DNA of 64,000 bases from positions 544,001 to 608,000 of the forward strand of contig BK006944.2 in the NCBI GenBank assembly GCA_000146045.2, read 5' to 3'. The stretch is from TPA_inf: Saccharomyces. Taxonomy: Eukaryota. The first letter of the stretch is position 1. Each line of letters starts with the position of its first letter. Below the pieces are notes generated by a model. That model did no database searches. It was not told where the DNA came from and saw nothing but the letters and a program-made list of their open reading frames with translations. Made by a program: the position numbers and the translations under genes. Below, one piece after another: positions 14,955 to 45,659 of this stretch.

Positions 14955-15016
14955 CGAGAAAAGCGTGTATCCGCATACTATAAATACGTATATATAACAA
15001 AGTAACCATCAAGAAA

Positions 15017-15367
15017 GATGTTCCATACCTCAGGTCATCACCATTTCATGGGTCGCTTAACCGAAAATATCAGAAGCAACCTCTAACGGCGATGGTTTTA
15101 AAGATGGATTACCTCAGCACCAACAGTTACACTATTCGGAACCGAAGATTTATCTACGATACTCATTATCCTTTCTCTATCTCACCCTGAAATAATTTAT
15201 TAAAAATAAACTATGCCAAAGAAGAGAAAAGAGAAAAATTTAAAAAAAACGAGAGCCATTGCAACAGTTTTGGAAGTAAGAATAGGTTGAAAATTAGTCA
15301 AAAAGACAAATCCGGCTCCTATAAACCATCAAACAATAGGCTCCCTAAAGCATCACAAATTGTTATG
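15017..15367 (-). ncRNA. Candidate H/ACA box snoRNA in the KTR2-TFA2 gap (possibly snR42; boundaries approximate)
   Basis: 711-bp gap with no ORF over 60 codons on the sense strands. The minus-strand transcript would end ...AACAUCU (ACA three nt from a 3' end near 15016). It contains a two-stem, internal-loop hairpin: GGUUGCUU/AAGCGACC upper stem, CAUCGCC/GGUGAUG lower stem. My unverified recollection is that snR42 maps near chrXI:559017..559367 (Crick strand), which falls in this gap on my coordinate estimate. Confidence 0.3.
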
Positions 15368-29393: not shown

Positions 29394-29573
29394 TATGTAT
29401 ATAAAGACAAGATATCATTCAAACGCTGACGTTAAAGTTTTAAGGTTAATCGTGTATGCATTATGTTCTAGATTCATCAACACTGGATATTGAGCAAAAA
29501 GGACGTATCCGAGGCCCGAAAAGGTCCTTCAACCAAGTCGTCAAAATATTGGCAAGCCAAAAGAGCAGCGAGA

Positions 29574-34964: not shown

Positions 34965-35060
34965 TCCTTGTTAGCTCAGTTGGTAGAGCGTTCGGCTTTT
35001 AAGCGCATTTGCTTAAGCAAGGATACCGAAATGTCAGGGGTTCGAGCCCCCTATGAGGAG
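34965..35060 (+). tRNA. tK(UUU): tRNA-Lys, anticodon UUU, with a 23-nt intron (35002..35024) 3' of anticodon position 37
   Basis: TCCTTGTTAGCTCAGTTGGTAGAGCGTTCGGCTTTTAA[intron AGCGCATTTGCTTAAGCAAGGAT]ACCGAAATGTCAGGGGTTCGAGCCCCCTATGAGGAG. Cloverleaf with 7-bp acceptor stem (two G-U pairs). A and B boxes (TAGCTCAGTTGG, GGTTCGAGCC). Confidence 0.9.
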
Positions 35061-39395: not shown

Positions 39396-39652
39396 CAAGC
39401 TGTAATTAAATAATCAAATGTCTATAATCTCCCTGAGTTGCCTCTTTTTCTATACTCAATTGGGTAATTGACGCGAAACGCGTTAAAGTGCAAAAAAAGG
39501 CCTGGAAATTATATTTAACGCAATGAAATATTTTCATAATATGACATTCATGCACAGCTGTATTCATTCTTCTACTTTGTAGTTTGTTATTCTTCTTTAT
39601 CGGTTTCGTTTTACAAAAGATTTTAGCAAGGAAGCAGTTTTTAAACCAATCA

Positions 39653-40744
39653 ATGGTATACACAACACCGCAACAACAGCAGAGATTCAGCTCCACACCG
39701 CAATCTAGCCACACTCTTATCTTCTCGCCAATCAGAGCCCCTTCAATGCAAACGCCCTCCTCATTGGATTACCAATCACCTTCAATTGTTGTGTCATCGT
39801 CTTCAATGAAGGTTCACGGCCGGTCTTCCAGTTTCGGTAAATTTTCACTGTCTATTGGGCAAAATGGTAAGGCTACAATACTGGGGCCTATAAACGTCCT
39901 TCCCACTGATACATCGAAAATGGAGAAACCTGTACCAAAGAAAAAGCCTGTTACTTCTGACCGTGTCGAAAAGACTCGTATATTATCTTTGTTGAAAAAA
40001 ATGAGAAACAAGAGCAGTACTGTCAACAAAAAATATAGTAAAGTACCATTAAAGTCTACGACAAGTTTGCAACCAGCAGCTACTGCACCTTCACCACTAG
40101 TGTCCAACATCATAAAGCCGTCTCCCAAAAAGTTAGCTTCCCCAAGAACTCCGAATGCAAACTCCAATTTAAATCTAAACTTTACTTCATTTCAGATTAA
40201 AACAGGTTTCACTCCCAATCTCGATGGAATTTTACTTGAAAACTTCACGTCTCCTAACACAACCGCTGATTCACAGGGTAATTCCGCCAGTAACATCATA
40301 AATAATAATCACGGTAGCGCAAATAATACCAACCAATTTCTTTTTAATCTACCACTTCAATCATCACCAAGGCAATTCAGGTCTCCTGCAAGATTAATAG
40401 ATCCCCTTCCCATATCGGACTGGAACACCAGTCTCTTGATGTCACCCCCAAGAACGACGAATTTTGAATCTGCAAACAATCACTTCAATTCAAATTTTGC
40501 TCAAGCATCGATGTTAAGACGCCCTTCACTACCGCACATAGATGAGGTGATTCCACAGGACTCTAATCCAGCCAATTACTCAGATAGATCGGACTATCTA
40601 TCTGTGGACCAGAACGCCAATAATCATAATGGTGCACTTTCAGAACAGACCTATAATAATATAATGAAATCTTCTATGATTTCGTTACCTATAGAAAAAG
40701 ATGATGCCACAATGGCACTACGAAAACTTGTCTCCAGAGAGTAG
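39653..40744 (+). CDS. MSA2: Putative G1/S transcriptional activator, Ser/Asn-rich low-complexity protein, 363 aa (YKR077W)
   Basis: MVYTTPQQQQRFSSTPQSS... First real ATG at 39653 (track start is TTG). Identified by position and composition from memory. Confidence 0.75.
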   Translation: MVYTTPQQQQRFSSTPQSSHTLIFSPIRAPSMQTPSSLDYQSPSIVVSSSSMKVHGRSSSFGKFSLSIGQNGKATILGPINVLPTDTSKMEKPVPKKKPVTSDRVEKTRILSLLKKMRNKSSTVNKKYSKVPLKSTTSLQPAATAPSPLVSNIIKPSPKKLASPRTPNANSNLNLNFTSFQIKTGFTPNLDGILLENFTSPNTTADSQGNSASNIINNNHGSANNTNQFLFNLPLQSSPRQFRSPARLIDPLPISDWNTSLLMSPPRTTNFESANNHFNSNFAQASMLRRPSLPHIDEVIPQDSNPANYSDRSDYLSVDQNANNHNGALSEQTYNNIMKSSMISLPIEKDDATMALRKLVSRE

Positions 40745-42788: not shown

Positions 42789-45305
42789 CTAATTTTTCTT
42801 GTGTTTCTTAAGTTTGACTTCCAAATCTTGTACGCTTTCAACGTCATCAACATCTTCTTCTTCTTCCTTTTCTTCAACAAATGCCTTATTCAGCAGTGGA
42901 AAAATACGCTGCTGTTCACCAATTTTCTCATAATCAACGATCATACTGTCGAAAGCAAAACAAAATTCTCTCGCCATCACATCAATATTATTGTCTAATT
43001 GGGGCAATTTGGGATATCTCTGGGAAAAGTGTGTTAAGATCAACTTCCTAGCATTCATTTTGTTCGAAACACCGATTGCTTCATTAATAGTGCAGTGTTT
43101 TTTCTTCACGGCATCCTCCAGTAGCTGATTTTCTAGTGTAGCTTCGTGAATTAATAGATCTGAATTATAGCCTATTTCGAGGGAAAATTTCTCGATGTTA
43201 GGTCTTGTATCGCCTGAATATGAAACCTTGAATGTATTATGCTCATTGTTTTCGTCCATTCGGAAGGTAATTGAGTTCGAATATGCCCAGTCACAATGTA
43301 TAGCTCTGCAAGTTTGAAAATATTCTATCGATAAATCCTCATACATTTGTCTGATCAAGTCAACATCCCTATATGAAGAATCTCTATCCAGTTCCAGTTT
43401 TCTGTTTGATTCTTGATTGCTATTTTCTTTCAATATTTCATTGAACTCTGCCAAAGGAACAGATTGTGTCTGCATTCTTACAAACGAATCATTGATGAAA
43501 TGCTCACAACTTATGTATTTGATTCTCTTTAAAATCTCTTTATTTTCTAGAACTAACCATTCATTAACAAATTTGTGATATTGCCATGGAGTAACCACAT
43601 ATATATAACTCGTTTCATCATCCTTGTTATATTTGTACCATTCATTTAGCACGCTGATTATTCCCAAATGGTGGTCTGCATGCAAGTGACTCAGATATAT
43701 CATTTTCAAATCCTGAAATATTGACTTGACTGCTAGCTGAGAAAACATCCTGTGTATGGTACCTAAAGTATTTTCACCAGCATCTAGCATAATGTTTCTA
43801 TTTATGGTATTTCCATCGGCGTCAGTAAAAGGAACTTTAACAAGTGTGGAGACAACGTTTCTATATTTAGAAGGCAATGCACTACCGGTTCCTAAGGTGA
43901 TAATTTCAACGTGTTTCTTCTTTTCTGCTGAATTGTTAAAGTTATCCACGTGTAGTTGATTATTGATAACTGTATCGACATCAGCTAAGGGAAATTCTAA
44001 TGGTTTTACATGTTCTTCGAAAATTTCTTGCCACGAGAAATCCGCCACTTCACCGTTGATGTTGCATTTCATCGGTTCTTCGTTCATCCGAAATGGTTCG
44101 AAAGTTACTGTCTTGTTTTGTGAAAAAATATGAATGTTATCCTTCTCTATTATTGTATTCAAAGGCTCTTCCTGGGATTTACACATAGATGTACCTCTGC
44201 TGAGTGGTGTATCGAATCTGTCGTAGAAGTCCTTGGAAAACACACGATCTGTTTTTGGTAAATTGTAATTATTTACTTGTAGTGCCTTTAATTTCAATGT
44301 GGTCAATGCAGAACCGAAAAATGATATCGTGTTTGGAGAAATTTTATTGTGGGATATCATATGATTTACTTTACCATAATTGTTTTTCTCAAATATGTCA
44401 ATGAACGCGAATAGATTATCATTAATGGTAACCTCATCACCAAGAAAATAATACACCATGCCAAGCTCAGCACAATCATAATCCTTGAATTTTTCTACGA
44501 AAGCGTTCAAATATAGGTCATCTGGGATATCCAGGATCAATACTTTGGCAAAATGACGTTCATTCTCCAATACCTGTTCCGGAGTTACAACAATACCGTT
44601 ATCCAAAGTAATTGTTTGGCCCTTGGTTAACTTTGCAAATAAGGGACCCTTCGGAACACCTAGTTTAATAGCTTCCTCCACTTTAAATTTACCCCTCACT
44701 GGACTGAATGAAATCTCGTAATTCGTAGAAACTTCCACTTTGGCGTCTAAGTCAGGCAACTCTACATTCAAGTGCGGATCACTAGAAGGATCGTACCTAT
44801 CGGTGGGTGCATGTTTGGGGAACATTTTTGCTACTATGGAACGTAATACACCTTTTTGAAAACTATCGAAGACGCCTAACCTGTCTTCCCCCCCATTTTT
44901 CAGAACATTAAAGGATTTAACAGCTATTATCTTATCTTTATATACTTCCTTGTCTTTCATAATGTGATCGTTCAAGTCTATTCCGAATCTAAAGACGAAG
45001 TATCTCCAAGTGGAAACTATGTAATTCAAAATGTCATTGCCGTAATGCAAAACAAGATTACTTTTCCCTTGATCAGCAATAGTCAAAATCATTCCAGGTA
45101 ATCCACCTATATCTGACCAGTTTAATTCACCAGTAAGGAAAATATCCTTCAATTTGGATATCCTGATCTTATTTTCAGTCAGACTCCTTTGGGATCCTTC
45201 ACCAATTTTACCGAAGAAATACTTTTCCCCATGTGCAGACTGGACTAGCAGCAATGGGTGCTTTGTATCCGATGTAGGATGGGTGATGGGTATAAATGTG
45301 AACAT
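42789..45305 (-). CDS. TRZ1: tRNase Z (long form, ELAC2 family), tRNA 3'-end endonuclease, 838 aa (YKR079C)
   Basis: Metallo-beta-lactamase motif HLHADHHLG in the C-terminal half. Pseudo-MBL N-terminal half. First real ATG at complement 45303..45305; the upstream in-frame 'M' of the track is TTG. Confidence 0.9.
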   Translation of the reverse strand: MFTFIPITHPTSDTKHPLLLVQSAHGEKYFFGKIGEGSQRSLTENKIRISKLKDIFLTGELNWSDIGGLPGMILTIADQGKSNLVLHYGNDILNYIVSTWRYFVFRFGIDLNDHIMKDKEVYKDKIIAVKSFNVLKNGGEDRLGVFDSFQKGVLRSIVAKMFPKHAPTDRYDPSSDPHLNVELPDLDAKVEVSTNYEISFSPVRGKFKVEEAIKLGVPKGPLFAKLTKGQTITLDNGIVVTPEQVLENERHFAKVLILDIPDDLYLNAFVEKFKDYDCAELGMVYYFLGDEVTINDNLFAFIDIFEKNNYGKVNHMISHNKISPNTISFFGSALTTLKLKALQVNNYNLPKTDRVFSKDFYDRFDTPLSRGTSMCKSQEEPLNTIIEKDNIHIFSQNKTVTFEPFRMNEEPMKCNINGEVADFSWQEIFEEHVKPLEFPLADVDTVINNQLHVDNFNNSAEKKKHVEIITLGTGSALPSKYRNVVSTLVKVPFTDADGNTINRNIMLDAGENTLGTIHRMFSQLAVKSIFQDLKMIYLSHLHADHHLGIISVLNEWYKYNKDDETSYIYVVTPWQYHKFVNEWLVLENKEILKRIKYISCEHFINDSFVRMQTQSVPLAEFNEILKENSNQESNRKLELDRDSSYRDVDLIRQMYEDLSIEYFQTCRAIHCDWAYSNSITFRMDENNEHNTFKVSYSGDTRPNIEKFSLEIGYNSDLLIHEATLENQLLEDAVKKKHCTINEAIGVSNKMNARKLILTHFSQRYPKLPQLDNNIDVMAREFCFAFDSMIVDYEKIGEQQRIFPLLNKAFVEEKEEEEDVDDVESVQDLEVKLKKHKKN

Positions 45306-45659
45306 CGTTGAAAACCTTCCAGGACTCTTTTCTTTGCGGGTGGTCGTTCTATTAGTCTGTTGCTTTTTAGGTCCCTTTCTGTATGATTTATACCTCCTGA
45401 CCAAATGGGAAAATGCAGATGAGAAGGATTTCAAGTGTGAATGACTATTTAGTAGTATATTCGACAGTTTGAATTATGCTTGAGGAAGATTATTTCACTG
45501 CCGCTCTATATCCTTTCGGGTATTTTAGAGAGAGAAAAGGAGGCAAAAAACAACCACCTAGACAGAATCATTAAAAGGTGGTATGAACTGCCGAAAAAGG
45601 GCCCAAGACAAGGTTTAGGATGCTAATTATGTCTTCCCTTTACGTCAGTTATAGATTAT

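Follow-up and report, generated by a model that had tools for sequence, protein, structure and literature searches.

A CUG codon in a conserved context as the probable start of the mitochondrial presequence of budding yeast Trz1

The minus-strand segment 45306..45467 of the window analysed here, a stretch of 64,000 nt from Saccharomyces contig BK006944.2, is likely to encode a 54-residue mitochondrial presequence of Trz1 which is initiated at a CUG codon at 45467, with leaky scanning past this codon to the annotated AUG at 45305. Published work has shown that the extension is translated without an AUG, that it is needed for mitochondrial Trz1 and for respiration, and that the form made from the AUG is not mitochondrial. 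The non-AUG mitochondrial extension of Trz1 is already known, and the suspicion expressed in the initial annotation that it might not be novel was well founded, since it was published in 2019 (Monteuuis 2019, PMC6582344). The isoform discussed here is the MT-NTE isoform of Trz1 described in that paper, with the same locus and mechanism and no difference in kind; what the comparative evidence adds is the codon CTG 45467, and it suggests that CUG rather than UUG is the start.

The gene and its leader are delimited by the following features.

42789..45305, minus strand: annotated coding sequence of TRZ1 (YKR079C), 838 aa plus stop, identified from the ORF, PDB 5mtz, PF13691 and PF12706
45303..45305, minus strand: annotated AUG (Met1), context tcaacgATGt, A at -3
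45474..45476, minus strand: in-frame TAA closing the TRZ1 frame, two codons 5' of the CTG at 45467
45306..45568, minus strand: leader without an AUG in any of the three frames; going 5', the first ATG lies at 45571..45569, 101 nt past the CTG

The TRZ1 product matches the PDB entry 5mtz ('Ribonuclease Z') across residues 1-838 (838/838) and human ELAC2 with an E value of about 1e-51, and it contains the Pfam domains PF13691 (N-terminal, E = 1.9e-26) and PF12706. The presence of PF13691 together with a metallo-beta-lactamase C-terminal domain, and the identity to the solved Trz1, place it in the long form of tRNase Z (Trz1/ELAC2), and the AUG-initiated 838-aa protein is the nuclear tRNase Z isoform. 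The position of Met1 is homologous (MFT.. or MY..) across all orthologues examined, and the neighbours of TRZ1, a PX/Vps5-like gene and a THF dehydrogenase gene, also flank the orthologues. Elsewhere in the window there is a full-length H/ACA snoRNA, snR42, at 15016..15366 on the minus strand (383.8 bits, model positions 1-349 of 349), and an Rfam tRNA match at 34965..35060 on the plus strand (52.9 bits, 96 nt span) which probably contains an intron; no tRNA was called by ARAGORN anywhere in the window.

Upstream of Met1 the TRZ1 frame stays open for 56 codons, back to the TAA at 45476..45474, and contains no in-frame ATG, exactly as the initial annotation had described. The remaining two frames 5' of the ATG are open for just 14 and 41 codons. 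For the 27 long ORFs (at least 250 aa) in the window, the median upstream open stretch is 9 codons, and TRZ1 has both the maximum (56, the next being 36) and the highest upstream net charge (+13); a net charge of +12 was reached by 1.4% of 512 43-aa windows drawn from open frames in the non-ORF sequence of the window. The TRZ1 upstream open frame exceeds chance expectation. Stop-free, AUG-free in-frame sequence adjoining the AUG, which is what defines an MT-NTE, is present both in S. cerevisiae (56 codons) and in all 10 of the lineages compared below.

The second longest upstream stretch in the window, 36 open codons (39545..39652) with a net charge of +3, precedes a 363-aa ORF beginning at 39653 on the plus strand, for which a Pfam search gave no match. 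The second highest upstream net charge, +7, belongs to 34 open AUG-free codons (29472..29573) preceding a HAD-like hydrolase ORF (from 29574, plus strand, 352 aa, PF13344 and PF13242). This stretch contains D and E, and because the annotated N-terminus of the hydrolase (MIGKRFFQTTSKK) is already presequence-like, an upstream extension seems unnecessary there; the main text of Monteuuis 2019 (PMC6582344) does not mention the gene. A plus-strand ORF at 45154..45444 (96 aa, TTG) was considered as an overlapping gene and set aside as a mechanical ORF without support.

The peptide specified by the TRZ1 extension is described by two features.

45306..45467, minus strand: N-terminal extension, 54 codons from CTG to AUG, defined by translation and by comparison within Saccharomyces; function as given by Monteuuis 2019 (PMC6582344)
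45306..45320, minus strand: GRFST directly before Met1, its DNA nearly invariant in Saccharomyces

When read with an initiator Met, the extension is (M)SNILLNSHSHLKSFSSAFSHLVRRYKSYRKGPKKQQTNRTTTRKEKSPGRFST, with 13 K/R, one acidic residue and 15 S/T in 54 aa and a maximum hydrophobic moment of 0.65, and in composition, charge and hydrophobic moment it has the properties of a presequence (basic, hydroxylated, few acidic residues, amphipathic). The 43-aa peptide read from the TTG at 45434..45432 in the initial annotation is identical to the translation obtained here, and its description as strongly basic and hydroxylated with almost no acidic residues is accurate (13 K/R, one E, 12 S/T). The first 25 residues counted from the conserved start site contain 2-5 K/R and 0-1 D/E in 10/10 lineages. 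The residues preceding Met1 are RFST in S. cerevisiae, ARISS in T. globosa and LRIAT in L. nothofagi, and one may speculate that this R-(F/I)-(S/A)-(S/T)-Met1 ending is a candidate R-2 type MPP cleavage motif (R-F↓S-T). If MPP cuts at this point, mature mitochondrial Trz1 would be just 2 residues longer than the nuclear form; the mitochondrial form is reported to migrate slightly more slowly (Monteuuis 2019, PMC6582344).

An open frame of basic composition could also be a by-product of an A-rich 5' UTR, with Trz1 reaching mitochondria through an internal signal. A-rich leaders translate to peptides rich in K, N, R and T, an open stretch of 56 codons is not impossible by chance, and internal signals were initially raised as a possibility by Skowronek 2014 (PMC3866640). 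This explanation is exceedingly improbable and has already been refuted by published experiments, in which cells making Trz1 from the AUG only lack it in their mitochondria and are petite, as determined by fractionation, complementation and growth on glycerol (Monteuuis 2019, NAR 47:5777, PMC6582344). It is also opposed by the way TRZ1 stands out from the set of 27 long ORFs in the window and by the comparative data presented below, in which the frame is open in 10/10 lineages with the other frames closing quickly, and the indels preserve the frame.

Further published results concern the extension itself. A construct that carries the extension and in which the AUG is changed to GCG yields predominantly mitochondrial Trz1, the extension is classed as a strong 'MTS gain', and ribosome density 5' of the AUG is described as 'most evident' for a small group that includes Trz1 (Monteuuis 2019, PMC6582344). 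Translation of the TRZ1 extension is increased in the eIF1-L96P mutant, in which start-codon stringency is relaxed (Zhou 2020, PMC7075259). Insertion of a GAL1 promoter just 5' of the TRZ1 start codon gave only petites (Chen 2005, PMC1156898), and Trz1 was found to be nuclear and mitochondrial, with any alteration just 5' of the ATG again producing petites, by Skowronek 2014 (PMC3866640); the non-AUG extension accounts for this effect of manipulations at this position. The proposal in the initial annotation that a non-AUG extension provides dual targeting was correct as to mechanism (Monteuuis 2019, PMC6582344), while its choice of TTG 45434 as the start codon is probably wrong, CTG being favoured. 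A mapped initiating codon was not found in the available text of Monteuuis 2019 (PMC6582344), where the construct is named by its first codon, TTC; this codon is missing from the near-cognate list in the same text. The constructs begin at this TTC (45473, immediately 3' of the TAA) and are expressed from the heterologous ADH promoter, and they do not discriminate between the CTG, the ATA and the two TTGs.

The evaluation of these candidates depends on the following elements of the leader.

45465..45467, minus strand: CTG, codon -54, context ttcaaaCTGt, A at -3; invariant in four Saccharomyces species
45432..45434, minus strand: TTG, codon -43, the start proposed earlier, C at -3
45402..45404, minus strand: second in-frame TTG, codon -33, C at -3
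45458..45472, minus strand: best-conserved part of the leader, a block reading TCAA(A/G)CTGTCGAATA, with 45467..45458 invariant across Saccharomyces
45504..45510, minus strand: TATA-like element TATAGAG, 43 nt upstream of the CTG; TATATAAA in S. kudriavzevii

Further in-frame near-cognates are ATA 45458 (-51), ACG 45347 (-14) and ACG 45308 (-1); the initial annotation had not listed these three codons, CTG 45467 or TTG 45404. Judged by the sequence comparisons that follow, the mitochondrial isoform most probably initiates at CTG 45467..45465, a near-cognate in a favourable context (ttcaaaCTGt, A at -3) that is conserved and forms part of an in-frame motif enriched over shuffled sequences. TTG 45434 may be a minor start at most and is probably not the main one.

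The comparison within Saccharomyces used loci from S. kudriavzevii (L001, L002), S. arboricola (L004) and a further Saccharomyces sequence, L003 (Logan ERR268470); the orthologues of S. paradoxus and S. mikatae are not separable from the 90% cluster, and these species lie outside the comparison. The TRZ1 upstream frame is open for 67-74 codons in L001-L004. Between the CTG and the ATG the sole indel in the alignment is one of 3 nt, whereas 5' of the CTG there are 8-nt and 4-nt indels and identity is lower, with 85/159 ungapped columns invariant in the extension against 34/82 upstream of the CTG. The portions of the longer open frames that lie 5' of the CTG were rejected as coding sequence on account of these indels and this lower identity, and are probably untranslated leader. 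Within the conserved block the invariant alignment columns are T89-A92 and C94-A103 (first-sequence numbering). Pairwise comparison of the extension gives dN/dS values of 0.27-0.69, and neither of the other frames is free of stops. The extension thus carries a coding signature in its frame-preserving indels and its dN/dS below 1, although the bias towards third-position change is weak (variable columns by codon position, 23/23/28), and constraint at the level of the peptide is accordingly modest, as is usual for presequences. The pattern fits an extension which is constrained by composition more than by sequence.

The comparison was extended across the Saccharomycetaceae with loci from K. marxianus (L005), N. 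dairenensis, Nakaseomyces bracarensis, T. globosa, Kazachstania africana, L. nothofagi and V. polyspora, and two out-of-sample lineages, Z. mrakii and E. cymbalariae, were added afterwards, giving a total of 10 lineages and 13 loci. In 10/10 lineages the homologous upstream frame has 36-87 open codons and no in-frame ATG, and the stretch free of AUG in any frame 5' of Met1 measures 174-440 nt across 13/13 loci (195-440 nt before the two later lineages were added). Taken over 8 independent lineages, the median number of open codons is 63 in the TRZ1 frame and 11.5 in the two alternative frames (Mann-Whitney p = 6e-5), and in 8/8 the TRZ1 frame is the longest of the three. Each lineage also carries a near-cognate site in this frame, as follows (sequence, then codon position relative to Met1).

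S. cerevisiae: ttcaaaCTGt, -54
S. kudriavzevii and L003: ctcaagCTGt, -54 / -53
S. arboricola: gtcaagCTGt, -53
N. dairenensis: gtaaaaCTGt, -79
N. dairenensis, second such site: atcaaaCTGg, -82
N. bracarensis: aaaaaaCTGt, -67
T. globosa: ttcaagGTGt, -51
K. africana: ttaaagTTGt, -33
L. nothofagi: ttcaaaGTGt, -48
V. polyspora: ttcaagTTGt, -51
K. marxianus (L005): tcaacaGTGt, -28
Z. mrakii (out-of-sample): ttcaagGTGt, -49
E. cymbalariae (out-of-sample): ggaacaTTGt, -36

An in-frame NUG with A at -3 and followed by U is found in 10/10 lineages, with the consensus (U)UCAAR-NUG-U, and the codon at the conserved site is CUG, GUG or UUG and never AUG. In-frame AAR-NTG is present in 7/8 lineages, compared with 1.0 expected from dinucleotide shuffles (0/2000 shuffles reached 7), and A[AC]R-NTG-T is present in 8/8, compared with 0.34 expected; by frame, the AAR-NTG counts are 9, 2 and 0. 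The motif was defined post hoc, after inspection of the data, and was then tested on the two new lineages, both of which (2/2) carry the site. In these two, Z. mrakii and E. cymbalariae, the frame is open for 67 and 47 codons, respectively (other frames 1-10), and is free of ATG. From this distribution we infer that the arrangement is older than the divergence of the sampled Saccharomycetaceae genera. No description of family-wide conservation of the start site was found in the portions of the TRZ1 literature examined.

Initiation by the same mechanism at the UUG at 45434..45432, giving a 43-residue extension, would be expected if the CUG were outside the mRNA or too close to the cap. UUG can serve as a near-cognate start in yeast, and the peptide from TTG 45434 keeps all 13 basic residues as well as the window of highest amphipathic moment. 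In yeast, transcripts usually begin 40-120 nt 3' of a TATA element, and the TATA-like element lies 43 nt 5' of the CTG, so that some transcripts may start at or downstream of the CTG; on transcripts starting beyond it, UUG 45434 would be the first near-cognate. In the alignment a conserved ACGGTGAAAGA block comes after the TATA-like element, which is itself conserved, and both lie 5' of the start-site motif (columns ~50-76). The two are probably core promoter elements, with a spacing to the CTG (43 nt) that is short, and the invariant block at the CTG could partly reflect an initiator region instead of the context of a start codon. A promoter/terminator scan was disregarded, its consensus sequences being bacterial and not applicable to yeast.

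Initiation mainly at the UUG is nonetheless quite unlikely. Its context is poor, with C at -3, and although a near-cognate occupies the position in 3/4 Saccharomyces sequences (TTG in S. cerevisiae, ATT in L003, ATA in S. arboricola), S. kudriavzevii has GTA, which is not a near-cognate. Other genera have no equivalent conserved site, whereas the CTG-type site is found in 10/10 lineages, and in every lineage 63-208 nt of AUG-free sequence lies 5' of this site, which is consistent with a leader that includes it. A preprint also gives the S. cerevisiae TRZ1 start as CUG (10.1101/2022.03.25.485750). An automatic gene call, protein P0001 (881 aa, Logan), begins TRZ1 at TTG 45434 (838 + 43 aa), as does the mechanical ORF list; the TTG in these calls appears to come from bacterial-style rules (ATG, GTG, TTG) and not to be evidence of a start.

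Initiation might instead be heterogeneous, with CTG -54, ATA -51, TTG -43 and TTG -33 each contributing and any of the products being imported. Four near-cognates do lie within 21 codons, all of the resulting peptides are strongly basic (net charge +11 to +12), and two start sites are in common use genome-wide (Monteuuis 2019, PMC6582344). Such mixed initiation is unlikely as the main account: conservation and the AAR context are confined to the CTG site, scanning favours the first usable codon, and the product from TTG -33, a position occupied by TTG in S. kudriavzevii, CTG in L003 and CCA in S. arboricola, would lose the hydrophobic, amphipathic N-terminal part. Enhancement of near-cognate initiation by downstream RNA structure was rejected, as the folding of the 88 nt 3' of the CTG is no more stable than that of shuffled sequences (z = -0.08) and the consensus fold of this region in the four Saccharomyces species reaches -2.1 kcal/mol with a single compensatory pair.

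With the CUG as the preferred start, a minority of scanning 40S subunits would initiate with Met-tRNAi at CUG 45467..45465 (UUCAAA-CUG-U, A at -3), and the resulting pre-Trz1 would be imported into mitochondria for processing of mitochondrial tRNA 3' ends. Most subunits would pass the CUG, traverse the AUG-free leader and reach the AUG at 45305 (A at -3), producing the 838-aa nuclear enzyme. Leaky scanning to Met1 requires a leader without AUG, and the TRZ1 leader has none in any frame, so that subunits which bypass the CUG would arrive at the annotated AUG.

This arrangement resembles that of the yeast genes ALA1, GRS1 and HTS1/VAS1, in each of which one gene yields two isoforms, an upstream start adding a presequence and leaky scanning giving the non-mitochondrial form; ALA1 (ACG) and GRS1 (UUG) are cited as near-cognate precedents in Monteuuis 2019 (PMC6582344) and Zhou 2020 (PMC7075259). 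Unlike the aminoacyl-tRNA synthetases encoded by these genes, Trz1 is a tRNA 3' endonuclease, its second compartment is the nucleus and not the cytosol, and its start would be CUG. The orthologous human ELAC2 (RNase Z-L) follows the same logic, with an upstream start that adds a presequence and leaky scanning that gives the nuclear form, and the parallel drawn in the initial annotation with alternative upstream initiation of its mitochondrial isoform is confirmed, the mechanism there being two AUGs and leaky scanning (Rossmanith 2011, PMC3084753). The two genes differ in that the first ELAC2 AUG stands in a poor context (PMC3084753), whereas TRZ1 lacks an upstream AUG, with ATG absent in all frames for 266 nt 5' of Met1, and has a near-cognate in a good context.

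In K. marxianus, Ribo-seq and TSS-seq place a GUG start 5' of the TRZ1 AUG on transcripts with a single TSS, and this near-cognate likewise adds a presequence (bioRxiv 10.1101/2022.03.25.485750). The codon is GUG and not CUG, and the extension has 28 codons as against 54; the GTG at -28 in L005 corresponds to the GUG of the preprint, where it is counted as '27 codons upstream'. S. pombe has a nuclear and a mitochondrial tRNase Z-L encoded by separate genes, and trz1/trz2 thus meet the same need for tRNase Z in both compartments by gene duplication and not by alternative initiation. Two TRZ1 paralogues that differ in length are also present in each of Henningerozyma blattae (P0053/P0059) and Babjeviella inositovora (P0081/P0093), and these may split nuclear and mitochondrial roles in the manner of S. 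pombe trz1/trz2.

The distinction between CTG 45467 and TTG 45434 matters for annotation and for the design of constructs, including promoter swaps, N-terminal tags and the choice of the codon to mutate. A weak start is conserved, in a strong and likewise conserved context, throughout the family; this adds modestly to published work, and it offers a clean example for the study of how the efficiency of near-cognate initiation is set. More tentatively, (U)UCAAR-NUG-U might be a selected tuning element that fixes the nuclear-to-mitochondrial ratio of an essential enzyme, in which the codon drifts among CUG, GUG and UUG and never becomes AUG, and in which the -6..-1 flank is perhaps constrained beyond the A at -3; this is a possibility which we hold to be doubtful. 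Trz1 is the sole tRNase Z of budding yeast and is essential in the nucleus as well as in mitochondria, and the non-AUG extension lets one gene serve both.
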